A stretch of DNA of 32,000 nt from Ignavibacteriales bacterium (GTDB lineage: Bacteria > Bacteroidota > Ignavibacteria > Ignavibacteriales > Ignavibacteriaceae). The notes beneath the pieces are model-generated. The model saw nothing but the letters and a program-made list of their open reading frames with translations, did no database searches and was not told the origin of the DNA. Positions 2,689 to 25,937 of this stretch are shown piece by piece; the first letter of the stretch is position 1, and every line of letters begins with the position of its first letter. The position numbers and the translations under genes were made by a program. Location: contig JADJMD010000013.1 in assembly GCA_016709765.1 (NCBI GenBank), forward strand, positions 376,593 through 408,592. Direction: 5' to 3'.

Positions 2689-2702
2689 TAAATGCTGTGA
2701 TT

Positions 2703-4924: not shown

Positions 4925-4930
4925 TATAAA

Positions 4931-5686: not shown

Positions 5687-5689
5687 TTC

Positions 5690-6634
5690 CTAAAGCCCTT
5701 CCCTTAGGGAAGGGTTGGGATGGGCTTTCATCAATTGCATAAAACGGTCTTCAATGTTTGGTTTGATTTGCTTGATCTCAAGTTCAGCGTGATCTTTTAA
5801 ATATGATTTTAGTTCATTTATGTCTGGCTGTTCCTCATTTAAAACGAGATGATGATATTGCCCAAATGCAAAACAGGATTCCGTTTTAGAATAGGCTCGT
5901 AAATCGTTTAAAAGATTAAACATACTTTTTGATTTAATCGCATACAGATTTTTATCAAATCTGTTTATAATGTTTTGTGGGGTATCAATTTCTAAAATTC
6001 TACCTGTTTGAATAAGCGCAATCCTATCACACAATTTTGCCTCATCCATATATGGAGTTGAAACAAGTATACTAATGCCTTGTTCCTTTAATCGTTTTAG
6101 CATTTCCCAAAATTCTTTTCGCGAAACGGGATCAACTCCTGTTGTTGGTTCATCAAGGAAAAGAACTTTAGGTTTATGAATTAATGCACAGCTAAGAGCA
6201 AGTTTCTGTTTCATTCCACCGCTGAGTTTACCTGCACGCCTTGTTTTGAATGGTTCGAGCTGCTTGTAAATATCGGCGATTAAATCATAATTCTCTTGAA
6301 CAGTCGTGTTAAAAATCGTTGCGAAGAAATTTAGATTTTCTTCTACGGTTAAATCCTGGTAGAGTGAAAATCGTCCCGGCATATAACCAACAATATTTCT
6401 GATTGCTTTATAATCTTTCACAACATCAAGCCCAAGCACTGCTGCATTTCCTTTATCAGCAAGCAGTACTGTAGTCAGAATTCTAAAGATTGAAGTTTTG
6501 CCTGCACCATCCGGTCCTATCAATCCGAAAAGTTCTCCTTCATCAACAGAAAATGAAATATCATCAACCGCTGTGATAACATCTTTTTTTGCAGCGTACG
6601 TTTTGGTGACACTATTTAATTCAATTGCATTCAT
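5690..6634 (-). CDS. ABC transporter ATP-binding protein with C-terminal extension
   Basis: Walker A GPDGAGKTS, signature LSGGMKQKLAL, Walker B VLFLDEPTTGVD, plus a ~90-aa C-terminal domain. Together with 4931..5686 it equals the two halves of a YbhF-type tandem ATPase. Confidence 0.9.
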   Translation of the reverse strand: MNAIELNSVTKTYAAKKDVITAVDDISFSVDEGELFGLIGPDGAGKTSIFRILTTVLLADKGNAAVLGLDVVKDYKAIRNIVGYMPGRFSLYQDLTVEENLNFFATIFNTTVQENYDLIADIYKQLEPFKTRRAGKLSGGMKQKLALSCALIHKPKVLFLDEPTTGVDPVSRKEFWEMLKRLKEQGISILVSTPYMDEAKLCDRIALIQTGRILEIDTPQNIINRFDKNLYAIKSKSMFNLLNDLRAYSKTESCFAFGQYHHLVLNEEQPDINELKSYLKDHAELEIKQIKPNIEDRFMQLMKAHPNPSLREGL

Positions 6635-6640
6635 AAAAAA

Positions 6641-7546
6641 TTAGAATTTCACTTCTCCGCACATACCGATCTTTAGATAACCGTTGTTTAATACTTTTAC
6701 TTTGATTGCATAAACAAGATTTGCACGTTCATCTTTAGTTTGGATTGTCTTTGGAGTAAACTCAGCTTTTGAAGATACCCAATAAATTTCTCCCAGCATC
6801 TCTTTTTGTTCACCTTCACCTTTATCTACAAATACTTTTACTTTTTGCTCAAGTTTTATTTGTCCAAGTTGATCACCATCAACGTACGCACGTAAAGTCA
6901 TTTCAGAAAGATCAGCAATTTTATAAAGTGCCTTGCCATTTACAGTAATCTCATCTGGTTTCGCGTAACGGGTTAAAACTGTTCCATCAATCGGATTTTT
7001 TATAATACTCTTTTTGATTTGATCTTCAATCTGTTCAACTTGTGCGATTAGCGGAAGAGTTTCACTTTGTATCCCTTGTTTCGTAATTGTTAAACTGGAT
7101 TTGGCTGCTGTGTATTGCTTGATTAAAACTTCTAACTGTGAGTTTATATCATCAAGTTGTTTTGTAGTTGCGGCATCCAATTTAACAAGATTTTCAATTC
7201 GCTTTTTCTCAACCTCAGTAGTTTCAATTTGCTTTTGAAGAGCTGCAAGTTGAGCACTAATATCAGGTTGTTTACTTAATACAGCTTTGATATTTGCCTG
7301 AAGTTGTTTTTTCTTAAGATATAATTGTGTTGTGTCAACTACTCCAACAATTTGATTTTGTTTAAGCTGCATTCCTTCTTCAACTTGAAACATTACAAGT
7401 TTTCCCATCGCTTCCGATGAAACAATAATCTCTTCTGATTCAAATGTACCCGTGGCATCAAAATCTCCATTACCATTCGAGCAGCCAAACAAAAGAGCTA
7501 CAGCTAAAATAAATGCAATGTTTAAAAATCTGTTTTTCATTTTCAT
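6641..7546 (-). CDS. HlyD-family membrane fusion / periplasmic adaptor protein (YbhG-like)
   Basis: 301 aa with a lipoprotein-type signal (LLFGCSN), a long Q/K/E-rich coiled coil and a beta-rich C-terminus. Located between the TolC-family and ABC genes. Confidence 0.85.
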   Translation of the reverse strand: MKMKNRFLNIAFILAVALLFGCSNGNGDFDATGTFESEEIIVSSEAMGKLVMFQVEEGMQLKQNQIVGVVDTTQLYLKKKQLQANIKAVLSKQPDISAQLAALQKQIETTEVEKKRIENLVKLDAATTKQLDDINSQLEVLIKQYTAAKSSLTITKQGIQSETLPLIAQVEQIEDQIKKSIIKNPIDGTVLTRYAKPDEITVNGKALYKIADLSEMTLRAYVDGDQLGQIKLEQKVKVFVDKGEGEQKEMLGEIYWVSSKAEFTPKTIQTKDERANLVYAIKVKVLNNGYLKIGMCGEVKF

Positions 7547-7560
7547 CTCTATAATATTTT

Positions 7561-8829
7561 TTAATTTCCTGTTGTGATTTTGTAGTTATACTGTGCGAGC
7601 AATAATTGAATTTTGTGAATCTCTAAATTTTGTTTTGAAGTATCTTCCGCATTTAAATCACGGACATAGTCACTGGAGGTAATCACCCCGTTTTCAAGTT
7701 TTGCTTTAGCTGATTCTTTAACTGAGGCTCTTAAATCAATTATACTTTTATCTACTTCAATCAATTTTTTAAGTTTATCAATTTCTTGTAGCTGCTGATT
7801 AGTGGTGATCTTTGTGTTTAGTAGGAATGTTTCCGTTTGAGCATCAATGCTTTGCAGATTTAACTGATTGATTTCACTTTCATTTCCATAGCTGTATAGA
7901 TTTGATAGTGACCATGAAAATCGAATACCGGTTATGTAATACCAATCAAAATCATTTATGAACATATTCAGTCCTGGTTTTCCGTATCCACCCTGAAAAA
8001 ACAAATTAGCTTTTGGAATAATTTTGGAAACAGTAATCCCATCCTGATTTTCTATCAGATTTTTCTGAGCTGAGTACATCTTCAATTCAGGTCTAATTAT
8101 TTCTTCGGCAGATAGATAATCAATTTGCGGTGGAGTAGAGAAAATAGTCGATTCATTTAAACTTTCATTTATTAACAAACCAAGTATATTGATATAAGAT
8201 ATACGTGAAGAGTTAAGTTCAATTTTGCGCTGCTCTGTTTTTAATAGCTCTGCCCTTAAAACATTGACATCAGATTTAGTTGCTGTGCCATTTGCATAAG
8301 CAGCATCAAGTTTTGAAATGCTGGCATTTAAATCATTTATAACAAGCTCAATTTGATTTACTTGAGATTCAATAAGAATAATGCCTAAATAAATTTGATT
8401 AACTCTTTCTTTAATCTTTAATAGTTCAATCTCAATTTTTTGATCATCAATTTCATTTACAGATTCCTGAATACCAGCTTGCGAACCCATTATTCCGCCG
8501 TCATAAATTGTCTGTGTTACATCAACTGCAGCCTTATATTGATCTTTTGAGAGTCTTTGAATTACAACTCCGGGCAATGGCATTGGAACCTCTGTCACAT
8601 CGGATTGATATGAAGCCTGTGCAATAAGAGTTATCTGTGGAAAGTATCCGTTCCAAATATTGCTGACGCTGTAATCCTTTGTTTTAGCAATGTAATCTTT
8701 CTGTTTTATAAGCGGATAATTTATTCTTGCCTTCTCATAGCAATCTTCAAGAGTAAGCTGCGTTTGAGGAATAATAAAATCCTGACTTATTAATAACAGG
8801 GTTATAAATAATAATCTTTTCATAATCAC
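7561..8829 (-). CDS. TolC-family outer membrane efflux protein
   Basis: 422 aa with a signal peptide and two tandem coiled-coil/beta repeats typical of the OEP family. 4-nt overlap with the upstream TetR gene. Confidence 0.85.
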   Translation of the reverse strand: MIMKRLLFITLLLISQDFIIPQTQLTLEDCYEKARINYPLIKQKDYIAKTKDYSVSNIWNGYFPQITLIAQASYQSDVTEVPMPLPGVVIQRLSKDQYKAAVDVTQTIYDGGIMGSQAGIQESVNEIDDQKIEIELLKIKERVNQIYLGIILIESQVNQIELVINDLNASISKLDAAYANGTATKSDVNVLRAELLKTEQRKIELNSSRISYINILGLLINESLNESTIFSTPPQIDYLSAEEIIRPELKMYSAQKNLIENQDGITVSKIIPKANLFFQGGYGKPGLNMFINDFDWYYITGIRFSWSLSNLYSYGNESEINQLNLQSIDAQTETFLLNTKITTNQQLQEIDKLKKLIEVDKSIIDLRASVKESAKAKLENGVITSSDYVRDLNAEDTSKQNLEIHKIQLLLAQYNYKITTGN

Positions 8830-9461
8830 ATCTTATTAATTGTTTGATTAAAAATTTTCTTTCCCCTTTTTTTTAGAATGCCATTTAATAGAATATTAAA
8901 TGTTAGTCTGAATTCTTGATGATAAGAGTAATTAGATAAATTATCTGATTTCGATGTTGCGATTGCTCCCAAAGCGGAAGTAAAAACTTTTATTATTATT
9001 TCATCAGGTATATCAAGAATCAATTCTTTCTCTTTACCATCTTTCAAAAGTCGATTTATCAGAGGGTTAATGTGGTGAATCCTGAATTGCTCGATGTAGT
9101 CAGCTAAATCTCTAAAATCATATCTCAATCTTTCAATGGATATTTCATTGAAAGCAGAGTAGTATTGTTCAACTATTTTTGATAGCTCAATAAATTTTTT
9201 AACAGTATTTCTTTCCTCTTCAATAATATTGATTAAATATCTGTACGGGTTGTTTAATTGATTTATTATGGCAGATCTTATTATTTCTTCTTTGGTTCGG
9301 AAAGTTTTATAAATTGTTTTTTTACTTATATGTAGCTCATTTGCAATTTGATCTACTGTAAAATTCCTAAAACCCTGAGTTGATAATTTCTTCTCGATAT
9401 GGTCGAGTATTCGAGATTTTAATTGATCTTCATTTTGATTTATGATTTCTATGGGTTTCAT
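8826..9461 (-). CDS. TetR/AcrR-family transcriptional regulator (first gene of the efflux operon)
   Basis: N-terminal HTH FTVDQIANELHISKKTIYKTFRTKEEI, followed by a helical ligand domain. Occupies a CecR(YbiH)-like position next to the YbhGFSR-type genes. Confidence 0.8.
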   Translation of the reverse strand: MKPIEIINQNEDQLKSRILDHIEKKLSTQGFRNFTVDQIANELHISKKTIYKTFRTKEEIIRSAIINQLNNPYRYLINIIEEERNTVKKFIELSKIVEQYYSAFNEISIERLRYDFRDLADYIEQFRIHHINPLINRLLKDGKEKELILDIPDEIIIKVFTSALGAIATSKSDNLSNYSYHQEFRLTFNILLNGILKKRGKKIFNQTINKM

Positions 9462-10664: not shown

Positions 10665-11255
10665 TTAATGCCCTGAATGTGAGCCGCTGCCATGTTCAAT
10701 AATATCGTGTATTGCTTCAACTGTATGCGTATAGTCAACATAAGCCGCTACAAATTCTCTTCCTATTTCAACTGAATCATCTTTTACTTTATTGAGTTCA
10801 GAAACTTTTTGATATTTATCGCGAACAACTTTATCAATATGATTATTCAGCTTGACCAAAAAATCATCCACATTTTCTTCTTTAATTGCTTTATCAGTCA
10901 TTTGAATAATCGGTTTTGTAGTTCCTGCAGGTTTTAAGCCTGTGTATGGAGCACCTTCTGTTTCACGATGCAATCGAACAAGTGTCTCGAAAAAATGTTT
11001 CTCCACGATCTCATAAACTTCTTTATCTCCATTGCGCAATTCGAAGGTTTTTCGAAACAATGTTGTTATCTCTTTCTCTTGTTCTTTAGTTACCCATTTA
11101 AGAACTAAATTAACATTGTTTGTTTCGAGTGCCATTTCAGCATCTTTAATTACTGGTCCATCATAAGAATCACAGTGTGCTGATGCTGTTTTAGTGAATA
11201 TGAAAATGAATGATGCAAATAACAACATCATTGAAAGTTTTGATTTGAGTAACAT
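10665..11255 (-). CDS. Secreted protein of unknown function (DUF6448-like by recollection), with predicted mature N-terminal His-Cys and a His-rich C-terminal tail
   Basis: Signal peptide ending in an AXA site (TASA|HCDSYDGPV). C-terminus is EHGSGSHSGH. Only 24 nt downstream of the ferredoxin gene, so probably in the same operon. Confidence 0.55.
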   Translation of the reverse strand: MLLKSKLSMMLLFASFIFIFTKTASAHCDSYDGPVIKDAEMALETNNVNLVLKWVTKEQEKEITTLFRKTFELRNGDKEVYEIVEKHFFETLVRLHRETEGAPYTGLKPAGTTKPIIQMTDKAIKEENVDDFLVKLNNHIDKVVRDKYQKVSELNKVKDDSVEIGREFVAAYVDYTHTVEAIHDIIEHGSGSHSGH

Positions 11256-11279: not shown

Positions 11280-11504
11280 TTATTTTCTTTTAATTGCATT
11301 CATCGGACAGATAGCAATACATTTTATTTTGTTTAAACCAGCACATTCGTCGCAAATTTCAGTTATAATAAAAAAATGATCCTCCGAAATCGGCGACATA
11401 AAGTTCTCTTTTATTTTCCAAACAATGCCAGGTTCATAAATCGCTTCTGTTGGACATTCTACTGCACAGGCTCCGCAGTTAATGCAATCTTCGGTAATTT
11501 TCAT
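11280..11504 (-). CDS. 2x[4Fe-4S] ferredoxin
   Basis: Contains CINCGACAVECP and CDEC-x8-C-x3-CP cluster motifs. 74 aa. 4-nt overlap with the upstream gene. Confidence 0.8.
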   Translation of the reverse strand: MKITEDCINCGACAVECPTEAIYEPGIVWKIKENFMSPISEDHFFIITEICDECAGLNKIKCIAICPMNAIKRK

Positions 11505-11956
11505 TTCACTTCACCTTTTGATTTTACATATTGAATTCGAACAGGTCTGATTCTTCCCCATATTGAATAAAAAAATAATCCTATAGCTAAAATTTGAAAT
11601 GTCGAGGCGATCGTTATCCAGATACCTATCCAATCATAAAAGTAAAATCCCTTCATAATCTGGAGTACAAATCTTATTAATGTAGTAAATGTCATCGCCC
11701 AATATGTTATATAGATTAGCAGAGGGTTGTATTTTTTATCCTCTTTTTCTGCTTTTGGGAAAAACCACAATGCAACACCCATAATCATCATCAATACTGA
11801 ACCTGCTAAAATTATATGTGTATGTGCAGTTATAATTTCTGGATAATAACCCGACTTAAAAACGTATCTAGAAAAAGACATAAAAAGTCCGCTTAATATT
11901 CCAATAATTAAAAATACTATGCTTGTTTTTATAAAATATCGTACTGTTGTAAACAT
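11501..11956 (-). CDS. 4-TM membrane protein, a single-module paralogue of the repeat unit in 12270..13535
   Basis: 151 aa. The motif AHTHIILAGSVLMMIMGVALWFFP (H45, H47, P67) aligns with the H-x-H...G...P modules of the 421-aa protein. Confidence 0.6.
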   Translation of the reverse strand: MFTTVRYFIKTSIVFLIIGILSGLFMSFSRYVFKSGYYPEIITAHTHIILAGSVLMMIMGVALWFFPKAEKEDKKYNPLLIYITYWAMTFTTLIRFVLQIMKGFYFYDWIGIWITIASTFQILAIGLFFYSIWGRIRPVRIQYVKSKGEVK

Positions 11957-11959
11957 AGC

Positions 11960-12262
11960 TTAACCTATATGTCCTAATTCCTGTCGAGCTTCATCAGTCA
12001 TTTTATCAGGTGTCCATTTAGGTTCCCAGACAAGATTTATAATTACTTTTTTTTCTGGTTCTAAGTGTCCGACTACATTTTCAACCCAAGCTGAAATACT
12101 GCTGTGCATCGGACAGCCCGGCGTAGTTAGGGTCATTGTGATTACATTTGCTTCATTGTTGGATTCAACTTCATAAACGAGCCCAAGATCAACGATATTA
12201 ATTCCTATCTCTGGATCAATAACACCTTTTAGAACTTCCAATATTTCTTCTTTGTTTGCCAT
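11960..12262 (-). CDS. DUF59 / SufT-like Fe-S (metal-sulfur) cluster assembly factor
   Basis: VIDPEIGINIVDLGLVY and TLTTPGCPM are hallmark motifs of the DUF59 (MIP18/PaaD-like) family. Confidence 0.8.
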   Translation of the reverse strand: MANKEEILEVLKGVIDPEIGINIVDLGLVYEVESNNEANVITMTLTTPGCPMHSSISAWVENVVGHLEPEKKVIINLVWEPKWTPDKMTDEARQELGHIG

Positions 12263-12269
12263 ATAGTTT

Positions 12270-13535
12270 TTACTTCCTGAAAATTGTTATCATATTAAAT
12301 AGAAAGATTACAGAACTGATAAACATTATTGAAAATGAAATCATTACTCCTATTACACTTCCAAATGCCAAAGAGTAAAGAGAGCCGAAAACTGCTGTAA
12401 TCATTAAATAGAACTCAATCTGTGCAAACTTTTCATTGAACATATCTTTTAACATCGGCACCGGTTCAAGCCCGACTTTACTGCTGTATTTGTGGTACCA
12501 AACAAGAAATGGTACAATCTTGTACATCTGTCCAACAATAAGCATAGAGATGTAACCGAAGATTATCATATAACCGTAAATAAGTGTAAGGTTGATAATG
12601 TTTTGATAATCAACAAATGCAATAAAAGTTCCGAGTATGGTTGTTAGTCCAAGCATAAGATATGCAACAACAGAAAACTTAATACCTATATCATACTTTT
12701 TTCTAATTCTGTTTTTGAAAATGATACGAATTTGAAGAAGGAAGAAAATTATCCCTAAAACAATTAGTCCGGTGAATATGTAATAAAGAAACGTTGTATC
12801 CTTGTAATGCATAATAGTAGATATCCCAAGTAAGCCTACGTTAAGAATCCAGAAGGCTAGTTTTGCATTTGTTAAAGGAAAACCATGTGAAAGAGTAAAC
12901 ATTGGAATAAGCTTAAATGAAACTCCCATTATCACCATAGAAACCCAGCCAATGAAAGCAATGTGTGCGTGTAAATTTAAATATTGAAGATGATCTAACT
13001 TTACGTATGGTGTCCATAGATTTATAGCCAGCAAAAGTCCTGCTATCGCAGTTACAATCAAATAGAAAATTGCCGCTGCAAGGTACCACGCAGTAACGTT
13101 CCATTTCTTAACGCTTTTCATAGTAATGATTATATTAAACGAAAAGATGAACATTGCAAGATTAAGTAGTACTGCTGAAAATGTCATATTAATTCCGGTA
13201 TCGAATACCCAGAAGCAATAGACTAAACCGATAACGCCAGGCAGATAAATCCAGAACTGAATCTCCGCGAGTTTTTCACTGAACAATTTTGTTTCGAGAA
13301 CTACAGGAACAAGCTGAAACATCGCACCAAATATTATCATCGTTATCCAACCGAGTGTTGCAACGTGATTGATTGAAAGAATCTTAGGATTGAAATGATG
13401 CCCCACTATTTCAGAATAATTAAGAAGTAAAAGAAAATTTAAAAGTACAAACGAAACAATGGCTGCGATAAAATATTTTGCAACTAATTTGAATGGGGGT
13501 GCATATGCAGAAACTATTGATTCGGATTGAATCAT
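12270..13535 (-). CDS. 12-TM membrane protein with threefold internal repeat, distantly related to heme-copper oxidase subunit I
   Basis: 421 aa. Three ~132-aa modules carry SINHVATLGWITMIIFGAMFQLVP (H57-P76), LHAHIAFIGWVSMVIMGVSFKLIP (H189/H191-P211) and IYGYMIIFGYISMLIVGQMYKIVP (Y320/Y322-P342). These resemble the helix-2 heme-ligand segment of the adjacent HCO (TAHPLVGIFGSTYSIVFGAFLFLVP). Confidence 0.6.
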   Translation of the reverse strand: MIQSESIVSAYAPPFKLVAKYFIAAIVSFVLLNFLLLLNYSEIVGHHFNPKILSINHVATLGWITMIIFGAMFQLVPVVLETKLFSEKLAEIQFWIYLPGVIGLVYCFWVFDTGINMTFSAVLLNLAMFIFSFNIIITMKSVKKWNVTAWYLAAAIFYLIVTAIAGLLLAINLWTPYVKLDHLQYLNLHAHIAFIGWVSMVIMGVSFKLIPMFTLSHGFPLTNAKLAFWILNVGLLGISTIMHYKDTTFLYYIFTGLIVLGIIFFLLQIRIIFKNRIRKKYDIGIKFSVVAYLMLGLTTILGTFIAFVDYQNIINLTLIYGYMIIFGYISMLIVGQMYKIVPFLVWYHKYSSKVGLEPVPMLKDMFNEKFAQIEFYLMITAVFGSLYSLAFGSVIGVMISFSIMFISSVIFLFNMITIFRK

Positions 13536-13537
13536 AA

Positions 13538-14347
13538 TTAATCGTTTCTCTTTTTCATTATTACAACCTTAAAATAATTTTCATCAATCTTATTTGTAAT
13601 TGCTGTGTAACCTCGTTCCTCAAGTTTTGGATAAAGCATCATCGGTTCACGATGATGATGAACAACCATTACTGTTTTTTCATCAACTCTGGAAATGTTT
13701 TCAAGTATCTTCATCATTGGTTCGGGCGGAGCTAATTCACGAACATCAAGCTCGATGACATTTTCATACTCAGCAAGAGATACCTGACTTATGTTCGATT
13801 CTACTTTTACTTTAGATTTGTTTACATCATTTTTGTAGAAGAAAACATTAAACACGCTGCCATCGTTTTCTGTCCAGTGCTCAAAACCTTTATTCTGCAT
13901 TACTGAATAAAGCGGAATTGGTTCAAACGAATTTATCAAATGAAAAACTTCCTCATCTTTTAGAGATTTTACTTTTGCCATTATCTCAAGGAAAGGATCT
14001 TTTCCAGAATCGATTATCGATCTTACATCCATCTTTTGAATTTTATCAGCACTTTTGTTTTTTAGAAGTTCAGGTTTTTCTATTTGAGTCATTTTTTCTT
14101 CCGTGCTTTCTTCATTAATAGTTTCAGTAATATCTGCATTGATTGATTTATTTAATTCATTTAATAAAAGAACGAGATTCACACCTGCAATTCCAGCTGC
14201 TTGCTCAACATTCACTCTGCTTGCAAGTGTTTTTCTCAGAATTTTGTTTTTGAGCCTAGCAAAATGAGGACTAAAGTTAACCAGCAACTCGAGCGTATCT
14301 GGATATTCTGCCAGCAGCTTCGATATTTTCACATCCTTGGTAATCAT
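13538..14347 (-). CDS. DUF1858 + two DUF2249 domain protein
   Basis: The N-terminus ITKDVKISKLLAEYPDTLELL...VNVEQAAGIAGVNLVLLLNELN is ScdA-N/DUF1858-like. It is followed by MDVRSIIDSGKDPFLEI...FHLINSFEPIPLY and LDVRELAPPEPMMKIL...MVVHHHREPMMLY, which are DUF2249-like. Confidence 0.7.
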   Translation of the reverse strand: MITKDVKISKLLAEYPDTLELLVNFSPHFARLKNKILRKTLASRVNVEQAAGIAGVNLVLLLNELNKSINADITETINEESTEEKMTQIEKPELLKNKSADKIQKMDVRSIIDSGKDPFLEIMAKVKSLKDEEVFHLINSFEPIPLYSVMQNKGFEHWTENDGSVFNVFFYKNDVNKSKVKVESNISQVSLAEYENVIELDVRELAPPEPMMKILENISRVDEKTVMVVHHHREPMMLYPKLEERGYTAITNKIDENYFKVVIMKKRND

Positions 14348-14728: not shown

Positions 14729-15445
14729 TTACTTTGCGAGATCTTTTAATCTTTTTATATCATTAACAAAAATAGATTTTCCATTAACGCGGATAACACC
14801 TTCATCTTGTAATTTTTTCAGACTTCTTGATAGGGTTTCGGTAATTGTACCGAGATACGCGGCAATGGTTGTTTTGGGAACTGATAATTTCACGAAAGGT
14901 TCTGCCAGCTTTTCAGTTCCCGAAGTTTTAATTTCTTTAAGAATATATTTTGCCAAACGATTTGGTATTTCCTTTGAAGTAAGGTCCTCAACCTGATTAA
15001 CCATTGCTTTTAGTCTCTTCGCAAATCCAGCAAGCATCCTAAGCGAGATTTCAGGGTTCTCATAAATTAGTTCTAAAAATCCTTCTTTTGATATACATAG
15101 TACCAGAGATTCTTCTAAACACTTTGCAGTTACAGGATAATCTGTTCCCTCAAAAAGCGGAATATCTGCAAAAGAGTTTAGAGGTTTTATGATATGGACT
15201 ACTGCTTCTTTTCCATCAGATGAGACTTTATAAACTTTAATCGTACCCTTTAGTAAAATATAAAATCCTGTATAAAAATCACCTTGATGAAATAAAAAAT
15301 CATTTTTCTGGAATTTTTTAACTCTGCTAAATGATGTAACTTTTCTTAAATCCTCAATACTCAACTCAGAAAAGAGGGGTAGCCTTCTTAATGTCTCTTT
15401 GCTGTCTATAGATTCAGTTGAATTGTCTTTTAGATGATTATTCAT
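14729..15445 (-). CDS. Crp/Fnr-family transcriptional regulator (no N-terminal Cys cluster; Dnr/NnrR/HcpR-like class)
   Basis: 238 aa with a cNMP-binding-like N-domain (LPLFSELS...FLFHQGD...) and a C-terminal HTH TIAAYLGTITETLSRSLKKLQDEG. Confidence 0.85.
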   Translation of the reverse strand: MNNHLKDNSTESIDSKETLRRLPLFSELSIEDLRKVTSFSRVKKFQKNDFLFHQGDFYTGFYILLKGTIKVYKVSSDGKEAVVHIIKPLNSFADIPLFEGTDYPVTAKCLEESLVLCISKEGFLELIYENPEISLRMLAGFAKRLKAMVNQVEDLTSKEIPNRLAKYILKEIKTSGTEKLAEPFVKLSVPKTTIAAYLGTITETLSRSLKKLQDEGVIRVNGKSIFVNDIKRLKDLAK

Positions 15446-15471: not shown

Positions 15472-15509
15472 TAAAAAAAATCCCTTACTAATTATATTTA
15501 ATAAGGGAT
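15472..15509 (-). terminator. Rho-independent terminator after the HCO subunit I gene
   Basis: 8-bp stem ATCCCTTA/TAAGGGAT (15480-15487 and 15502-15509) with a 14-nt loop. On the minus strand it is followed by T8 (the plus-strand A-run at 15472-15479). Confidence 0.6.
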
Positions 15510-15529
15510 TCCAAAAAGAGAAACAATGT

Positions 15530-17152
15530 TTATTTTCCTGCTGGCAACAAATCTTTTGTATTAGATTTTGCAGGCATAAAAATTCCAATAACACCTTTTA
15601 ATCCAACACTCATAACGATATTAAAAAAGAAAGCAAGAAAAGCTAACAGTAAAAGAGTTCCGGAAAGTGCAGCTAAGATCATATAAAGACTATACTCACC
15701 ATCAAAATAAATTGTACGTCTTAACATTCCTTTTAATCCTGCCATTCCCATAAATGCACCCATTCCAATTCCACCTAATAAATGTGCCCAGAAATGGAAG
15801 TTGGCCAACTTTTGACTGTACAGTTTTGCATTGTTAGTTACTATAGGAAATAAAAAGTAAATAGCTGAGTAAAGTGTCATTGTTAATCCAACTAATATTG
15901 CAACGTGTACGTGCGGGCCAACAATCCACTGTGTGTTGTGCAAGATTCTATTCAAACCTAAATCGGCCTGCATTATTCCAGCCGGTACAGCAAGCGCAAA
16001 TCCCAACAATCCTCCTAATAAAAATTTTAGTGGATTTGTCATCTTTAATGGTCTTGCACTCCAAAGTGTTATTAAAGTTATAAAGAAAGCAAGTCCTTGT
16101 GTGATAAGCTCAAAAGCTGTTACCATTTCACCAGATAGTATCTTTAAAATCCCTGGTTGAGCCTGATCTGACATTAAATGATGTGACCAAACTGTCCAGC
16201 TAACAACCATCTCAACAAACAACGCCGCACGTGCCCAGTTTTCCATAAATAATTTTTTGCCGGTAATCAATGTTGCAAGTAAATACCAGGTGCCTGCTAC
16301 AAAAATTAAAACCAATCCATCGGCAATTAAATCCAAACCCCACCAGAACCAGTTTTTATAAAGCAAAGCATCTATTGAAGAATGTTTTAAACTTGATCCT
16401 GCAATTTCTGCAATCATATAAATTAAAATTAAAACACCTGTAAAAAGTATTATACCTGCATTTAAAGCAGTATCAACAGTACCTCTTGCAATTGCAGCAA
16501 CAGGTAGAGAAACCATATGTTCTTTTTTATTTTTTCTGAAAAGATTTTTTAATCCGCTTAACCCTAATGCTGAAGCTAATAATCCTTTTCCATCCTGCTT
16601 TTCCCAACCTTCCGGTGTGTAAGCAATTGTTCTAAAAATATTAAGGACAAAGAAAACAGTACCAACCATTATTAAAGCAATACCAAGAATAAAAAATGTA
16701 CCGCCCCAAACGCTAAATTGATTAAAGTCTGCAGGTAATGGCCAGTACAATGTATAAAGTGGTGCATAGTGAGTTAAAAATCCTGCAAACCAAAATGTAA
16801 ATGTTCCAACTGCGATTAAGCCGCAAGTCCAGTTAGCAAGTTTAATACTCCATAAAGGTTTGCTCATTAGAAATGGTACAAGAAATAAAAATGCACCAAA
16901 AACTATTGAGTAAGTTGATCCGAAAATTCCAACAAGAGGATGTGCAGTAAGCATACCAAAATATTGATCAGGTGGTATTGCTGCAATTGGTGTTACCTGG
17001 TAAACCCGCATAAGCATTCCCTCAACAAGAGCGAATAAGTAGTAAACCAATCCAACAACAACAAACCTTAAAATCATTTTTTGCATTGGAGTAAGTGAAT
17101 TGGGTTTGAATAACCCCTCTTCTCCATCCATAAATGTTTGTATAAAATTCAT
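15530..17152 (-). CDS. Heme-copper oxidase superfamily subunit I homologue with a non-canonical (NOR-like) active site
   Basis: 540 aa, about 12+ TM. H71 (MLTAHPLVG), H324-H325 (WSHHLM) and H414/H416 (GPHVHVA) are present. Helix 6 reads NWFWWGLDLIADGLV, so the canonical GHPxVY is absent, with D274 and D278 at the His and Tyr positions. Confidence 0.85.
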   Translation of the reverse strand: MNFIQTFMDGEEGLFKPNSLTPMQKMILRFVVVGLVYYLFALVEGMLMRVYQVTPIAAIPPDQYFGMLTAHPLVGIFGSTYSIVFGAFLFLVPFLMSKPLWSIKLANWTCGLIAVGTFTFWFAGFLTHYAPLYTLYWPLPADFNQFSVWGGTFFILGIALIMVGTVFFVLNIFRTIAYTPEGWEKQDGKGLLASALGLSGLKNLFRKNKKEHMVSLPVAAIARGTVDTALNAGIILFTGVLILIYMIAEIAGSSLKHSSIDALLYKNWFWWGLDLIADGLVLIFVAGTWYLLATLITGKKLFMENWARAALFVEMVVSWTVWSHHLMSDQAQPGILKILSGEMVTAFELITQGLAFFITLITLWSARPLKMTNPLKFLLGGLLGFALAVPAGIMQADLGLNRILHNTQWIVGPHVHVAILVGLTMTLYSAIYFLFPIVTNNAKLYSQKLANFHFWAHLLGGIGMGAFMGMAGLKGMLRRTIYFDGEYSLYMILAALSGTLLLLAFLAFFFNIVMSVGLKGVIGIFMPAKSNTKDLLPAGK

Positions 17153-17193: not shown

Positions 17194-17742
17194 TTAATCG
17201 ATTACTTCAACAACGTTTTTTTCAATCATTCCGATGCCTTTTGGGCCAGAGTATTCTGTTGAGCGAATTGTATAAACTCCGGGTCTATCAAAATGCCAGA
17301 GTATATCGTTATTATGTCCGGGTAGAACCTGCATCTGGAACATCATTGTATTATCCTCACGGAATAATCCGAAACCATAAGTAAGGTCTTCTGATTTAAC
17401 ATTGAACATAACTTTGTCATTTGTATTGATAATCATTTTTTCTGAAGGAAGAATAAACTTATGATCAACAACCGTTATGTTAAATGTTTTATCAGGGATA
17501 ATTTCTGCACGGTTCAAATCCAGTGGCTTCCACGGGATTGTTTCGTGTGTAACTATGTGAAGTGAAACCCCAAGAAGAACGAGAAAACCAACCAGGGAAT
17601 AAAAAAGCGCAGGTTTAATTTCTTTAGACCCTTCGCTTTTTGTTACATTATAAGCAAACCAACCCATAAGCAGCATAATTGCCAGCACATAAAATGTGTA
17701 CGCAAATGTTTGGCCAAGAAGAACTGTATTTGAATCAACCAT
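17194..17742 (-). CDS. HCO subunit II-like cupredoxin protein lacking all CuA ligands
   Basis: 182 aa with two N-terminal TMs and a cupredoxin-like domain. The CuA motif C-x-E-x-C-G-x-x-H-x-x-M is replaced by STEYSGPKGIGM (C->S, C->S, H->G). The upstream His position reads DLTYGFGLF (H->Y). Confidence 0.7.
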   Translation of the reverse strand: MVDSNTVLLGQTFAYTFYVLAIMLLMGWFAYNVTKSEGSKEIKPALFYSLVGFLVLLGVSLHIVTHETIPWKPLDLNRAEIIPDKTFNITVVDHKFILPSEKMIINTNDKVMFNVKSEDLTYGFGLFREDNTMMFQMQVLPGHNNDILWHFDRPGVYTIRSTEYSGPKGIGMIEKNVVEVID

Positions 17743-17768
17743 ACTACATTCCTTATAAAATAAATTAA

Positions 17769-17790
17769 AATGCTACCCAAACGTAGTATT
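17769..17790 (-). promoter_or_regulatory. Imperfect palindrome AATGCTAC-N6-GTAGTATT, a candidate Rrf2/NsrR-type operator
   Basis: 7 of 8 arm positions are complementary. It lies in the 62-nt gap between the Rrf2 gene stop (17805) and the HCO subunit II start (17742). Confidence 0.25.
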
Positions 17791-17804
17791 TAAGTTTAAA
17801 TAAA

Positions 17805-18215
17805 TCAATTAGCTTTAGATTTATTGATTAAATCTGACAAACGTGTTTTATTTAGCATATTTATAAGGTCTTTCTGTGATCTGGTCCATATATCGTGCAT
17901 TGAACAAGGATTGTCTAAAGCGCACGTATCGAAACCAAAAAAACAGCCTGGTTCTTTCTTAAATCCTTCAACTGCATCTATTATTTCCGATATTCTAATT
18001 TTATCTGCTTTTCTAGCGAGTAAAAATCCACCGCTTCTTCCCTGGATACTTTTTATTAAACCACTTTTAGAAAGGTCTGTAAGCAGTCTCTGCAAATATT
18101 TTTTAGGAATTTTAAGTTCTTTATGTAATTCCAGTGATGAATGTAATTTTTTTTCTTCACCTGCCATAAGTGCTAAAACCCTTAATGCATATTCTGTAGT
18201 TTTTGAAAAAGTCAT
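17805..18215 (-). CDS. Rrf2-family transcriptional regulator (NsrR/IscR-like, three-Cys cluster ligands)
   Basis: N-terminal wHTH (TEYALRVLALMA...LQRLLTDLSKSGLIKSIQGRSGG). C-x6-C-x5-C motif in CFFGFDTCALDNPC. Confidence 0.85.
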   Translation of the reverse strand: MTFSKTTEYALRVLALMAGEEKKLHSSLELHKELKIPKKYLQRLLTDLSKSGLIKSIQGRSGGFLLARKADKIRISEIIDAVEGFKKEPGCFFGFDTCALDNPCSMHDIWTRSQKDLINMLNKTRLSDLINKSKAN

Positions 18216-18238: not shown

Positions 18239-18592
18239 TTAAAACGTAAACACTTTATCAGCTTCAACAGTCCACTGAGCAAGTTCACTCATATTACTCC
18301 TTGAACAGCCATCTATAAATTGAAGCGCAGCAACTCCACGCGCATCAATACATCCGCCGCAGAGTTTTACTTTTCCGCCTTTGTTTATAATGGCTTTTAA
18401 CATTCTTTCGATGTTATAATATCCTTGTGGTGTGTTTTGATTTAACAATGCACCTGTTACTGAATCAGCCATTAGAAAAACATTAACTTCAACTTCAGAG
18501 TGTTCCTTCTGGATCGTCATTGCAAGTCTGCAAGCGTTATAGAATTTTTCTGTACCGTAAGGTGCATCGTTAATTAAGAAAAGTATTTTCAA
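18239..18592 (-). CDS. DsrE/DsrF/TusD-like family protein
   Basis: 117 aa. MKILFLINDAPYGTEKFYNACRLA...VNVFLMADSV...KLCGGCIDARG is typical of the DsrE-like fold. Confidence 0.65.
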   Translation of the reverse strand: MKILFLINDAPYGTEKFYNACRLAMTIQKEHSEVEVNVFLMADSVTGALLNQNTPQGYYNIERMLKAIINKGGKVKLCGGCIDARGVAALQFIDGCSRSNMSELAQWTVEADKVFTF

Positions 18593-21703: not shown

Positions 21704-23278
21704 ATGGCAAAAAAAACTTCTAAACCTAAAAAACAAAAAAGTATCGAAGAAACTCTTTGGGATTCCGCCAACAAACTTCGCGGATCAGTAGAACCAGCCG
21801 AGTATAAACACGTTGTACTGGGACTCATCTTCCTAAAATTCGCTAGCGATAAATTTGAACAGCGTAAACAGGAACTCATATCAGAAGGCAAAGAAAAATA
21901 TATTGATATGGTTGAGTTCTATACTATGAAAAATGTTTTCTACCTTCCGGAAATTTCCCGGTGGACTTATTTAATTGAAAATGCAAAACAGTCAGATATC
22001 TCATTAAAAATTGATACTGCTCTTTTCACAGTTGAAAAAAATAATCCTGCTCTTAAAGGTGCTTTACCTGATAATTATTATTCCAGAATCAATCTAGAAC
22101 AAAGTAAAATTTCGGCATTATTAGATACTATTAATAATGTTGATACGCTCAGAGATAAAGAACAAGATCTTGTTGGTCGTGTATATGAATATTTCCTCAG
22201 CAAATTTGCTATTGCCGAAGGAAAAGGAAAAGGAGAATATTATACACCAAAATCTATCGTAAATTTGATCGCAGAATTGATCGAACCTTACAATGGTAAA
22301 ATATATGATCCCTGCTGCGGCTCAGGTGGTATGTTTGTTCAGTCTGTAAAGTTTGTAGAAAGTCATCACGGAAATAAAAAAAATATTTCCATTTATGGTC
22401 AGGAGGCAACAAACACTACTTACAAATTAGCTAAAATGAATCTTGCTATACGTGGTATTTCTGCAAACTTTGGTGAAAAAGCAGTTAGCACTTTTACAAA
22501 CGATCAGCATAAAGATCTTAAAGCTGATTTTGTTATGGCTAATCCCCCTTTCAATCAAAAAGATTGGCGTGCAAGTGACGAATTACTTTCTGATCCCCGT
22601 TGGAATGGATATGATGTACCGCCAGTCAGTAATGCAAATTATGCTTGGATATTAAATATAGTATCCAAACTGTCTGTAAACGGTGTAGCTGGATTTTTAT
22701 TAGCAAATGGTGCACTTGGCGATCCCGACACAATATCTATTCGTACACAACTAATTAAAAATGATCTTGTAGAATCTATAATTGTTTTGCCTCGTGATAT
22801 GTTTTATAGCACGGATATTAGCGTAACTCTTTGGATATTAAACGCTAATAAGAAATCGAGAACAATTGACCATGCGGGAAAAACTGTTAATTATCGTAAT
22901 CGCCAGAAGGAAGTACTCTTCATAGATTTACGACGATGTGGGGCTGAATATGAAAAAAAGTATATTCAACTTACAGAACAGGATGTTGAAAAAGTTAGAT
23001 CAACATATCATAATTGGCAATCAACCAAATACAAACAGGATTATCAAAATATTCCCGAGTATTGTTATTCTGCAACTTATAAAGAAATTGAAAATAATGG
23101 ATTTTCTTTAATCCCAAGCAAATATATTGAATTCGTTGATAGAGATAATAAGATTGATTTTGATAGAGAGATGAAACGGATTCAAAAAGAATTTAAAACA
23201 ATTCTAAAAGAAGAAATTGAATCGCAACAAGAATTACTAAATGCATTTAAAGGATTGGGGTATGAAATCAAACTTTAA
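21704..23278 (+). CDS. hsdM: Type I restriction-modification system, DNA methyltransferase subunit M
   Basis: HsdM_N-like LWDSANKLRGSVEPAEYKHVVLGLIFLKFASDKFE. SAM motif I is YDPCCGSGGMF. Catalytic motif IV is NPPF (VMANPPFNQKDW). Confidence 0.95.
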   Translation: MAKKTSKPKKQKSIEETLWDSANKLRGSVEPAEYKHVVLGLIFLKFASDKFEQRKQELISEGKEKYIDMVEFYTMKNVFYLPEISRWTYLIENAKQSDISLKIDTALFTVEKNNPALKGALPDNYYSRINLEQSKISALLDTINNVDTLRDKEQDLVGRVYEYFLSKFAIAEGKGKGEYYTPKSIVNLIAELIEPYNGKIYDPCCGSGGMFVQSVKFVESHHGNKKNISIYGQEATNTTYKLAKMNLAIRGISANFGEKAVSTFTNDQHKDLKADFVMANPPFNQKDWRASDELLSDPRWNGYDVPPVSNANYAWILNIVSKLSVNGVAGFLLANGALGDPDTISIRTQLIKNDLVESIIVLPRDMFYSTDISVTLWILNANKKSRTIDHAGKTVNYRNRQKEVLFIDLRRCGAEYEKKYIQLTEQDVEKVRSTYHNWQSTKYKQDYQNIPEYCYSATYKEIENNGFSLIPSKYIEFVDRDNKIDFDREMKRIQKEFKTILKEEIESQQELLNAFKGLGYEIKL

Positions 23279-24392
23279 ACGTATTGGAAATTATTTGCAG
23301 TTGGTTGATGAACGTAACACTGGACTAAAAATTACTCGCCTTTTAGGTATAAATATTACTAAAAACTTTATGCCTTCAGTCGCTAATACTTCTGGCGTCG
23401 ATTTATCAAGATACAAAACAGTTAAGAAAGATAGATTTGCTTGTAATATCATGCATGTAGGTAGAGATGAAAAACTGCCAATCGCTTTATACGCTGAAGA
23501 TGAACCGGCCATTGTTTCACCTGCTTATATGACTTTTGAAGTAATCAATACTCAAGAATTATTACCAGAATATTTAATGATGATATTTCAACGCGCTGAG
23601 TTCGATAGGTTTACTTGGTTTGTAAGTGATAATAGCGTAAGGGGTGGTTTGGATTGGGAAAGATTTTGTGAAATAGAAATTCCAATCCCAGATGATATTA
23701 AAGAACAAAAACTATTTGTTGAAATATATAGTAAATTACTTACCAATCAGGCGTGCTACGACAATAGTTTAAATGATCTTGAATTAATTTGTGATTCATT
23801 TATGGAATCACTTTTACAAACTGAAGTACCAAAAGTATTGGGTTCATACATTAAGCAATCAGAAGAGTACAACTCTAATTACACAATAAAAAATCTTTTA
23901 GGTATTAGTGTTGAAAAGAAATTTTTTCCATCTAAAACAAAACAAGAAGGTATTGATTTCAGAAGTTACAAGATTGTTAGAAAAAGGCAATTTGGATATG
24001 TTACTGTAACTTCAAGAAATGGTGAAAAAATTTCAATTGCATTATTGGAAGAGTCAGATGGCATTGTTTCAAGTACATATCTAGTATTTGATATTATTGA
24101 TAAAGATGTTCTTTTGCCTGAATTTCTTTTTCTATGGTTTAAACGACCAGAGTTTGATCGTTACGCTAGATACCACTCTTGGGGTAGTGCAAGAGAAACT
24201 TTCGACTGGACTGATATGTGCAATGTAAAATTGCCAATTCCAGATGTTGAAATTCAAAAATCAATTGTAGCGATCCACCATACACTTGAAACCCGAAAAA
24301 GATTAAATAATAAATTAAAAAACTTGATTGCTCCTCTATGCCCTATCTTAGTTAAAGGAGTTATTGGAAATTTTAAACTTGTAACTTCATAA
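23241..24392 (+). CDS. hsdS: Type I restriction-modification system, specificity subunit S
   Basis: Two tandem target-recognition halves. Each ends in a conserved block: LLPEYLMMIFQRAEFDRFTWFV...GLDWERFCEIEIPIPD and LLPEFLFLWFKRPEFDRYARYH...TFDWTDMCNVKLPIPD. It overlaps the hsdM end; the true start may be Met8 at 23262. Confidence 0.85.
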   Translation: MHLKDWGMKSNFKRIGNYLQLVDERNTGLKITRLLGINITKNFMPSVANTSGVDLSRYKTVKKDRFACNIMHVGRDEKLPIALYAEDEPAIVSPAYMTFEVINTQELLPEYLMMIFQRAEFDRFTWFVSDNSVRGGLDWERFCEIEIPIPDDIKEQKLFVEIYSKLLTNQACYDNSLNDLELICDSFMESLLQTEVPKVLGSYIKQSEEYNSNYTIKNLLGISVEKKFFPSKTKQEGIDFRSYKIVRKRQFGYVTVTSRNGEKISIALLEESDGIVSSTYLVFDIIDKDVLLPEFLFLWFKRPEFDRYARYHSWGSARETFDWTDMCNVKLPIPDVEIQKSIVAIHHTLETRKRLNNKLKNLIAPLCPILVKGVIGNFKLVTS

Positions 24393-24401
24393 ATAGATAC
24401 A

Positions 24402-25931
24402 ATGAAAATTAAGTCAGTCAAAATAAAAAATTTTAGAAGCTATAAAGATGAGATCAGTATTGAAATTGGTAATCTCACTGCTTTTGTTGGAAAGAATGAC
24501 ATTGGTAAATCTTCTCTTCTTGAAGTATTAGATTTTTTCTTCAACGAAGGAAAGGGTGTAATCAAATTAGATAAAGATGATATAAACAAATCAGCGTTAG
24601 CTGTTGGGGACAATGAAATTATTATTACTGTTGAATTTGAAGAATTACCTCCAACGATTGTAATTGACAGCACTAACGAAACCACACTCCAAAATGAATA
24701 TCTATTAAATCAATATGGACGCTTGACAATCATAAAAAAATATCCCAACGCAGGAAAAGAAAAAGTTTTTGTCAAAGCTTATCATCCAAACAATCCGCAT
24801 TGCAGAGATTTACTGAAGAAAACGAATACAGAGTTAAGAGCAATACTTAGCGATAGTAATATTGAATGTACTGATAGAACTAGGAATGCAGTGATGCGAA
24901 CTGCAATCTGGGATCATTATCGCGATTCACTTCAATTAGAAGATATTGAAATTGACGTTACAAAAGCGGATGTCAAATCCATTTGGGAAAAACTGCAAGA
25001 GTATTTGCCTTTATATTCATTATTTCAATCTGATAGAAAAAACAGTGATGGAGATAGTGAAGTACAAGACCCGTTAAAAGAAGCGGTAAAACAAATTCTC
25101 AAAAATGTAGAACTGAAAACTTTATTAAGCAGAGTTGCAGCTGAAGTTGAAACGAAATTAAGAGATGTAGCAAGTAGCACTCTTGAAAAACTAAACGAGC
25201 TGAATCCTGATGTTGCAAATTCTCTTAATCCAATCATTCCTTCTTCAGAAAATTTAAAATGGTTAGATGTTTTTAAAAGTGTTTCCATTGCTGGAGACGA
25301 GGATATTCCAATTAATAAAAGAGGTAGTGGAATAAAGCGTTTAATCCTGCTAAGCTTCTTTAGAGCAGAAGCAGAAAGAAGAAGGGCAGAAAAAAGTATT
25401 CCAAGCATTGTTTATGCTATTGAAGAACCCGAAACATCACAGCATACTGAACATCAGAAAAAATTAATGACCGCACTTTTAACTCTTGCAGGAGTTGCAA
25501 ACACTCAAATCCTTTTGACAACACACAGTGCAGTTGCAGTGAAAGAACTGAAGTTCGAACATATCCGCCTTATAGCTGAAACTGTAGAAGGCAAAACAAT
25601 AAAAGAAGTTATTCCAAATCAGTTGCCTTATCCCTCACTTAACGAAGTAAACTTTTTAGCGTTTAATGAAGTTACCGAAGAATATCACAATGAACTCTAT
25701 GGATTTATTGACGCAGAAGGATGGTTGAACAATTTCAAAAATGGCAAACCAACTATGAGTTACATCAAAGTATTAAGAGGTGGAAATACAAGATTAGAAC
25801 AAATAATACTTACAGAATATATCAGGCATCAAATTCATCATCCCGAAAACACGAACAATATAAGATTTACAAATGAGCAACTTTGTGAATCTATAAATCT
25901 AATGAGAGATTTTATTGAAGCACAACCATAA
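24402..25931 (+). CDS. ABC/SMC-type (AAA_15/AAA_21-like) ATPase with an uncharacterised ~130-aa C-terminal domain, embedded in the Type I R-M operon
   Basis: MKIKSVKIKNFRSYKD, Walker A GKNDIGKSS, RGSGIKRL, Walker B VYAIEEPE, H-loop LLTTHS. The C-terminus contains YIRHQIHHPEN (R-x4-H). It lies 9 nt after hsdS and 6 nt before hsdR. Confidence 0.8.
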   Translation: MKIKSVKIKNFRSYKDEISIEIGNLTAFVGKNDIGKSSLLEVLDFFFNEGKGVIKLDKDDINKSALAVGDNEIIITVEFEELPPTIVIDSTNETTLQNEYLLNQYGRLTIIKKYPNAGKEKVFVKAYHPNNPHCRDLLKKTNTELRAILSDSNIECTDRTRNAVMRTAIWDHYRDSLQLEDIEIDVTKADVKSIWEKLQEYLPLYSLFQSDRKNSDGDSEVQDPLKEAVKQILKNVELKTLLSRVAAEVETKLRDVASSTLEKLNELNPDVANSLNPIIPSSENLKWLDVFKSVSIAGDEDIPINKRGSGIKRLILLSFFRAEAERRRAEKSIPSIVYAIEEPETSQHTEHQKKLMTALLTLAGVANTQILLTTHSAVAVKELKFEHIRLIAETVEGKTIKEVIPNQLPYPSLNEVNFLAFNEVTEEYHNELYGFIDAEGWLNNFKNGKPTMSYIKVLRGGNTRLEQIILTEYIRHQIHHPENTNNIRFTNEQLCESINLMRDFIEAQP

Positions 25932-25937
25932 TTAAAT

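Follow-up and report, generated by a model that had tools for sequence, protein, structure and literature searches.

What reaction is catalyzed by a heme-copper oxidoreductase (HCO) in which a histidine ligand of the active-site metal and the cross-link tyrosine are both replaced by aspartate? This question is raised by a gene in a 32,000-nucleotide stretch of DNA (the window) from an Ignavibacteriales bacterium (GenBank assembly GCA_016709765.1, contig JADJMD010000013.1, positions 376,593 to 408,592). A single open reading frame (ORF) fills positions 15530–17152 of the minus strand. It is intact and of full length, and it encodes a protein of 540 amino acids (aa), referred to below as subunit I. 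In the databases (PGAP, JGI) this protein is named "cbb3-type cytochrome c oxidase subunit I". We propose instead that the operon containing the gene probably encodes a two-subunit, copper-free quinol:nitric oxide (NO) oxidoreductase of the gNOR family, which would be switched by an Fe-S regulator of the Rrf2 family.

Active-site residues of subunit I

The Pfam domain COX1 covers residues 26–499 of subunit I (E=3.8e-55). An AlphaFold2 model was built on a 40-sequence alignment (pLDDT 81.7, pTM 0.85), and its top PDB matches in Foldseek were all HCO subunit I proteins, with a TM-score of about 0.7. The initial annotation of this DNA had described the residues H71, H414/H416 and H324-H325 as intact and had pointed to the aspartates D274 and D278 in the helix-6 sequence NWFWWGLDLIADGLV. 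All of these residues are exact by translation. The spacing of the heme ligands and of the HH pair is similar to that in Thermus ba3 oxidase, as had also been stated. Relative to ba3, about 40 extra residues (178–215) are present between transmembrane (TM) helices 4 and 5, and a one-residue insertion (G-P-H) is found just before H414-V-H416. No histidine occurs at residues 258–323, and Y265 and Y290 are the only tyrosines of helix 6. Helix 7 (SWTVWSHH) has no tyrosine before the HH pair and shows no sign of the migrated tyrosine of cbb3-like enzymes.

The assignment of D274 and D278 to particular active-site positions depends on the register of helix 6. The nearest relatives outside the family were sought in a library of 1.84 billion proteins. 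They are HCOs of the O2-reductase type that read KN-x-L-W-[FW]-F-G-H-P-x-V-Y in this helix. When these relatives are aligned with MAFFT, K266-N267 falls on their K-N, D274 on their histidine and D278 on their tyrosine. In one of them, P0194, the sequence GHPVVY aligns to FGHPEVY of the Paracoccus aa3 oxidase, and counting the residues identifies the histidine and tyrosine as H276 and Y280, which form the canonical cross-link of that enzyme. A second relative, the sNOR/bNOR-like protein P0219, reads KHLIWWGLHSYVN and has the WWGL prefix and the helix length of the query. Its sequence WWGLHSYVN places a histidine at the position of D274 and an asparagine at that of D278. Since P0219 has equal length, the same prefix and a histidine there, D274 is placed at the histidine position. 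A profile–profile run with hhalign speaks against this register. It gives an alternative helix 6 with a 6-residue gap and a 5-residue counter-gap, which avoids pairing the aspartates with histidine or tyrosine. The true difference in length between K266 and Y290 is one residue (24 versus 23 residues). The gapped register was rejected as an artefact of this difference, because P0219 anchors the register. In cNOR, the FeB ligand Glu211 reportedly lies four residues after His207 (Hino and colleagues, 2010); therefore D278 matches this carboxylate too. The alignments thus confirm that D274 occupies the position of the CuB histidine and D278 that of the cross-link tyrosine, as the initial annotation had suggested from an ungapped comparison.

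Conservation of the family

Conservation was assessed in two sets of sequences. The close set contains 79 subunit I sequences from 80 loci of the GTDB database, and the broad set contains 40 sequences from both clades of the family, archaeal and Chloroflexi members among them, with identities as low as 40%. The helix-6 motif KNx[FYW]WWGLDxxADG is present in all close homologues (79/79), with D274 and D278 invariant. In the broad set, Y265, K266, N267, W270, W271, G272, L273, D274, A277, D278 and G279 of helix 6 are invariant (40/40), as are H71, H324, H325, H414, H416 and R478-R479 elsewhere in the protein. The invariance of both aspartates in both sets clearly indicates that they do not represent a chance substitution. 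Roughly 100 positions are invariant in the 40-sequence alignment at 40% overall identity. They include the polar residues E44, R49, R223, D227, N231 and E348. The initial annotation had considered that a conserved histidine or tyrosine might enter the site from another position. Alignments with HCO relatives revealed no other family-specific histidine or tyrosine placed to substitute in the active site, and beyond the five canonical histidines only H405 and H453 are invariant, two positions that are shared by HCOs in general.

The family is a large one: a search for words shared with the subunit I query yielded more than 3230 homologues, the top 120 being at least 81% identical to it, and members occur in at least 566 GTDB species genomes, among them Ignavibacteriota, Bacteroidales and others. 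Members from Ignavibacteriota and Bacteroidota share about 80% amino-acid identity with each other; within the clade that they form, identity is 74% or higher, and towards the archaeal/Chloroflexi clade it is about 42%. This second clade, at 40–46% identity, comprises sequences from Thermoprotei, Methanomethylicia, Anaerolineae, Dehalococcoidia and Actinobacteria. Several of the related loci were recovered from sulfidic caves, in metagenome-assembled genomes (MAGs). The window itself has a G+C content of 33%. The closest GTDB contig, CAWEUT010000020.1 from an Ignavibacteriaceae MAG, shows 94.5% nucleotide identity to it over 9 kb and 95% identity in the protein of subunit II; judged by these identities, it is a close relative and a different genome.

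Subunit II

The gene for subunit II lies 41 nt upstream of the subunit I gene, and this direct adjacency is found in 71–75 of the 80 loci. The protein has no Pfam match. Its best PDB matches are subunit II of Thermus ba3 oxidase and the CuA domain of this protein. In the HMMER alignment, DVIHGF of ba3 corresponds to DLTYGF, and YRIICNQYCGL to YTIRSTEYSGP. Both CuA cysteines are replaced by serine (S161 and S165), Y122 stands in place of the first CuA histidine, and G169 is located at the offset of the second. The protein from the window contains no cysteine at all. The residues Y122, S161, S165, G169 and M172 are invariant in all 71 subunit II homologues.

Assignment to the gNOR family

The gNOR family, predicted from sequence data to be a quinol-dependent NO reductase, was reportedly described as early as 2008, by Sievert and by Hemp and Gennis. 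To our knowledge, no gNOR enzyme has ever been purified. According to Murali et al. (PNAS 2024; PMC11214002), gNOR is the sole HCO family with an active-site histidine replaced, namely by aspartate, and all other families keep three active-site histidines. The same authors describe the family as lacking the tyrosine, as having a subunit II of the cupredoxin type in which the CuA ligands are absent, and as possibly oxidizing quinol; they report it from Bacteria and Archaea, with enrichment in sulfidic habitats. For the tyrosine position of gNOR, Table A4 of PMC8756737 gives "D", and it lists no proton channel. In PMC8906906 the genes are named norGH and the enzyme "quinone-oxidizing non-electrogenic". 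The gNOR class with a His-to-Asp change that was named in the initial annotation agrees with these definitions. Its remark that the class has no biochemical characterization is likewise in line with PMC13592168 (August 2026), where only cNOR, qNOR, bNOR and eNOR are named as biochemically tested.

The proteins encoded in the window show the HCO fold with heme histidines, the His-to-Asp change, an aspartate at the tyrosine position, and a cupredoxin subunit II devoid of CuA. No defining feature of gNOR differs in them. Because the defining features match and because all other families are stated to keep three histidines (PMC11214002), subunits I and II appear to belong to gNOR, as NorGH-type proteins and typical members of the family.

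NCBIfam holds no model for the subunit I family, and its oxidase models score far below their cutoffs (CtaD 94.6 versus 670 bits; ccoN 48 versus 583 bits). The cbb3-type name that the databases give to this protein is misleading. Searched against the PDB, the family profile scored 65–79 bits with A/B-family oxidases and about 40 bits with cbb3, and no match to cNOR or qNOR was obtained at E<=1. These scores agree with the literature, in which gNOR is derived from O2 reductases by a route independent of cNOR and qNOR. An affinity to cbb3 had been suggested by phmmer with a single sequence and by the profile of close homologues, which matched CcoN alone over helices 9–12 in the PDB. It was rejected, as the broader family profile reversed the ranking.

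The kind of enzyme and the aspartate hallmarks of gNOR are thus already known. New details are the Ignavibacteriota/Bacteroidota clade, which is not specifically described in the gNOR papers that were consulted, and its linkage to an Rrf2 regulator and a palindrome, which is not mentioned there.

Operon, regulator and operator

The conservation of neighbouring genes was assessed by clustering all ORFs across the 80 related loci. In the Ignavibacteriota/Bacteroidota loci, only subunit II and the Rrf2 regulator are conserved neighbours. The initial annotation had seen an NO-related context around the gene. This holds for subunit II and the regulator; a wider conserved neighbourhood of this kind was rejected, since these two genes alone recur. 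No nirK, nirS or nosZ gene is conserved within 10 kb in the 80 loci, and no CcoO/CcoP-like cytochrome c gene is found in the operon or conserved nearby.

The rrf2 gene is located directly upstream of the subunit II gene in 54 of the 80 loci. The residues C91, C98, C104 and H107 of its product are invariant (49/49) and represent the Cys3His Fe-S ligand set of the IscR type. The set of NsrR consists of three cysteines plus Asp8, and position 8 is variable here. An identification of the regulator as NsrR was rejected: the protein is equidistant from IscR, CymR, RsrR and NsrR, and its ligand set is IscR-like. With its IscR-like ligands, the Rrf2 protein would make an unusual sensor in an operon that resembles one for an NO reductase.

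The 62-nt spacer between rrf2 and the subunit II gene contains a palindrome with the consensus AAATRCTAY-N6-RTAGYATTT. With up to 2 mismatches, 38 matches to it were found in 1.23 Mb of related loci, 20 in the rrf2/subunit II spacer and 18 just upstream of rrf2; no match occurs elsewhere in these loci. This distribution makes the palindrome a strong candidate for the operator of the Rrf2 protein. The coordinates of all features are given in Table 1.

Table 1. Features of the operon, with their positions in the window
Feature	Position	Strand	Basis
Subunit I, predicted gNOR-type HCO subunit I (NorG-like), 540 aa, 12+ TM helices	15530..17152	-	ORF; Pfam COX1; AlphaFold2/Foldseek; homologues
H71, low-spin heme axial ligand, helix 2, TAHP	16940..16942	-	invariant in 40-sequence alignment; nearly so across HCO relatives
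H324-H325, helix-7 His pair, predicted two remaining non-heme metal ligands	16178..16183	-	WSHHL in 79/79; invariant across HCO relatives
H414-V-H416, helix-10 ligands of high-spin and low-spin hemes	15905..15913	-	alignments, conservation
Helix-6 motif N267-V281 (NWFWWGLDLIADGLV)	16310..16354	-	translation; alignments; invariance
D274, replaces CuB/FeB His	16331-16333	-	alignment to GHPxVY relatives, Paracoccus H276
D278, replaces cross-link Tyr, equivalent to cNOR Glu211	16319-16321	-	alignment to Paracoccus Y280
Subunit II (NorH-like), N-terminal TM helices and cupredoxin domain without CuA site	17194..17742	-	best PDB matches
CuA-loop remnant R160-M172 (RSTEYSGPKGIGM)	17227..17265	-	HMMER alignment to ba3
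Y122, in place of first CuA His	17377-17379	-	HMMER alignment to ba3
Rrf2-family regulator, 136 aa, C91/C98/C104/H107 Fe-S ligand set	17805..18215	-	Pfam Rrf2 E=1e-29
Palindrome AAATGCTAC-N6-GTAGTATTT, rrf2/subunit II spacer, candidate Rrf2 operator	17768..17791	.	lone window match
Terminator-like hairpin, 15-bp stem and T-run, operon end	15477..15512	-	18 nt past subunit I stop codon

Comparison with characterized enzymes

Like the proteins described here, Thermus ba3 oxidase (1EHK/1XME) consists of two subunits, and the family profile aligns to it from helix 6 to helix 12. In ba3, H233 and Y237 are cross-linked, three histidines bind CuB, and subunit II carries CuA. The counterparts of these residues are D274, D278 and, in subunit II, Y122/S161/S165/G169. 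With cNOR NorB of P. aeruginosa (3O0R) and with qNOR, the enzyme would have its presumed chemistry in common: a heme b3, a non-heme Fe and no tyrosine cofactor. A carboxylate is found four residues past the helix-6 ligand in both cases (Glu211 in cNOR and D278 here). In contrast, cNOR keeps three histidines (H207/H258/H259) and has the cytochrome c subunit NorC, and qNOR has a fused quinol domain, whereas the helix-6 histidine is an aspartate here and no cytochrome c gene is present in the operon. The profile comparisons suggest that the likeness to cNOR and qNOR is convergent and does not reflect common lineage.

In E. coli bo3, the top PDB match of the family profile (78.9 bits), subunit II is likewise of the cupredoxin type and devoid of CuA. 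The enzyme receives electrons from quinol via subunit I, where the residues R71, D75, H98 and Q101 form the quinol site. Unlike subunit I described here, bo3 keeps the full CuB-His3-Tyr site for O2 reduction. The engineered myoglobin FeBMb(-His), reportedly described by Lin and colleagues in 2010, is said to reduce NO at a site of heme and non-heme Fe with 2-His-1-Glu ligation. It is a soluble designed protein and not a homologue, but like the center proposed here it has a heme and a 2-His-1-carboxylate Fe site. It is cited in PMC11214002 as a chemical precedent for gNOR.

Proposed function

The operon represents a three-gene cassette in the order rrf2, subunit II and subunit I, and the HCO relative that it encodes carries no copper ligand set. 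Given the loss of CuA and the lack of a conserved cytochrome c partner, electrons most likely enter subunit I directly from (mena)quinol and would first reach the low-spin heme (H71/H416). The next acceptors would be the high-spin heme, ligated by H414, and a non-heme Fe bound to H324, H325 and D274. A site of two histidines and a carboxylate is of a type that would bind Fe(II). D278, one helical turn from D274, may serve as a fourth metal ligand or as a proton shuttle. The absence of the His-Tyr cofactor would make four-electron reduction of O2 impossible, and the reaction that we infer is 2 NO + 2 e- + 2 H+ -> N2O + H2O. The Fe-S Rrf2 protein, bound to the palindrome at 17768–17791, probably controls the expression of the operon. 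The initial annotation had argued for an NO-reducing non-heme-iron center. Of this proposal, the set of two histidines and a carboxylate without tyrosine is borne out by the sequence; NO reduction and the identity of the metal, like the electron donor and the signal of the regulator, stay at the level of inference.

The operon looks like a stand-alone, horizontally shared unit for the detoxification or scavenging of NO and not like a part of a denitrification cluster. A role in detoxification, controlled by NO stress, is suggested by the lack of conserved nir or nos neighbours. Hemerythrin genes are located near both distant family members that were examined, and a DUF59 gene near one of them. 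Together with the DUF1858/DUF2249 gene of the window described below, such neighbours hint at nitrosative or Fe-S stress.

Several points weigh against the proposed function. The assignment to gNOR was made from the published features of the family, whose named members include Damo_1118/1119 and proteins of Sulfurimonas and Persephonella. A preprint from 2019 (10.1101/592808) reports a His-to-Glu change of a heme ligand in gNOR, which is absent from subunit I. In the AlphaFold2 model, the pLDDT falls to 53–68 around the active site. The step from gNOR membership to NO reduction is one of analogy, supported by the myoglobin mimic of PMC11214002. The ligand set of the Rrf2 protein is IscR-like, and its sequence shows no greater similarity to NsrR than to IscR or CymR; NO sensing by this regulator would thus be a prediction at most.

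The same observations bear on the other explanations of the locus. It is unlikely, though with a chance worth keeping in view, that the gNOR scaffold catalyzes a different reaction, such as N2O reduction, NO dismutation, or the turnover of peroxide or nitrite in sulfidic habitats. NO reduction by gNOR is itself a prediction, and the family stands outside those tested (PMC13592168). Related HCO families have been reassigned to different reactions (PMC11214002), and N2O reduction has been proposed for a cNOR-related family. Such a reaction would also agree with the lack of conserved nirK, nirS and nosZ genes and with the regulator's IscR-type, not NsrR-type, ligands. Nevertheless, a heme together with a 2-His-carboxylate Fe center is known to support NO reduction in cNOR and in FeBMb(-His) (cited in PMC11214002), and the hemerythrin, DUF1858/DUF2249 and DUF59 neighbours indicate nitrosative or Fe-S stress. 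Rather improbable, too, is the broader idea that the Ignavibacteriota/Bacteroidota clade goes beyond a routine gNOR. It would then be a mobile, copper-free quinol oxidoreductase switched by an Fe-S Rrf2 protein, in which a 2-His/2-Asp site performs other chemistry, or an energy-conserving NO reductase that takes protons via a family-specific polar ladder in helix 8 (S340, T345, E348, T351).

The database names and the single-sequence phmmer search, with its match to CcoN of cbb3 alone (helices 9–12), would favour a divergent but working O2 reductase of the B or C type. This is very hard to reconcile with the replacement of both the helix-6 histidine and the tyrosine in every member, with a helix 7 that lacks the migrated tyrosine of the C family, with the loss of CuA, with the absence of adjacent CcoO/CcoP-like genes, and with CtaD and ccoN scores far under the NCBIfam cutoffs. 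The loss of the canonical catalytic residues and of both copper sites could alternatively mark a protein that is no enzyme, being either a degenerate relic without catalytic function or a sensor based on heme. We give this hardly any credence, as the protein is under extreme purifying selection (about 80% identity between phyla, and some 100 positions retained at 40% identity), the heme ligands, the HH pair, both aspartates and Arg478-Arg479 are invariant, the reading frame is intact and of full length, and the gene is strictly co-inherited with subunit II. The quinol:NO oxidoreductase of the gNOR type is therefore retained as the preferred reading.

Other genes in the window

Downstream of the operon, a gene for a protein with one DUF1858 and two DUF2249 (TusA-like) domains (13538–14347, minus strand) and a gene for a Crp/Fnr regulator (14729–15445, minus strand) are located. 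The latter protein lacks the FNR-type cysteine cluster, its only cysteines being C109 and C117, and no FNR-, CRP- or HcpR-type box above background was detected near its gene. Upstream, rrf2 is adjoined by a DsrE-family gene resembling those of sulfur relay (18239–18592, minus strand), which is conserved at this place in just 4 of the 80 loci. It is regarded as lying outside the module and fits the reported bias of gNOR towards sulfidic habitats.

An alternative cassette was found in four loci (L020, L043, L053, L057), where the order is Crp/Fnr, DUF6448, in some arrangements a 151-aa HCO-like protein, subunit II and subunit I; Rrf2 is missing from it. DUF6448 recurs near gNOR genes in 11 of the 80 loci. 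In the window, the DUF6448 gene (10665–11255, minus strand) encodes a protein with a signal peptide, an N-terminal HCD and a His-rich C-terminus. Two further genes of the window encode membrane proteins resembling HCO subunit I (12270–13535 and 11501–11956, both minus strand), with a DUF59/FeS_assembly_P gene (11960–12262, minus strand) between them. The product of the shorter one, of 151 aa, resembles helices 1–4 (ITAHTH), and that of the longer one, of 421 aa, resembles the C-terminal helices without the HH pair. The family of the longer protein counts at least 1200 members in Ignavibacteria and Melioribacter, with a uniform length of about 421 aa; their annotation is "hypothetical" or "cbb3-type subunit I", and their invariant histidines are H57, H182, H189, H217, H243 and H348. 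Judged by these sequences, the pair may form a split HCO-derived heme protein that is not yet characterized.

The remaining genes form two groups. A Type I restriction-modification system (hsdM, hsdS, hsdR) occupies 21704–29159 on the plus strand, with a gene for an AAA_15/DUF2813-type ATPase (24402–25931) between hsdS and hsdR. An efflux cluster at 1246–9461 on the minus strand encodes a TetR regulator, an outer-membrane factor, an HlyD-type adaptor, two ABC ATPases, two ABC-2 permeases and a DUF3943 protein.

Implications

gNOR is one of four NO reductase families predicted from sequence, and these may explain a large part of the N2O produced in the environment. The locus described here does not add a new kind of enzyme. 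It presents gNOR as a very large and tightly conserved clade, in which the genes travel as a three-gene cassette with their own Fe-S regulator and candidate operator and with all copper ligand sets missing. The locus also suggests that, among anaerobes that do not denitrify, many could be cryptic sinks of NO and sources of N2O.

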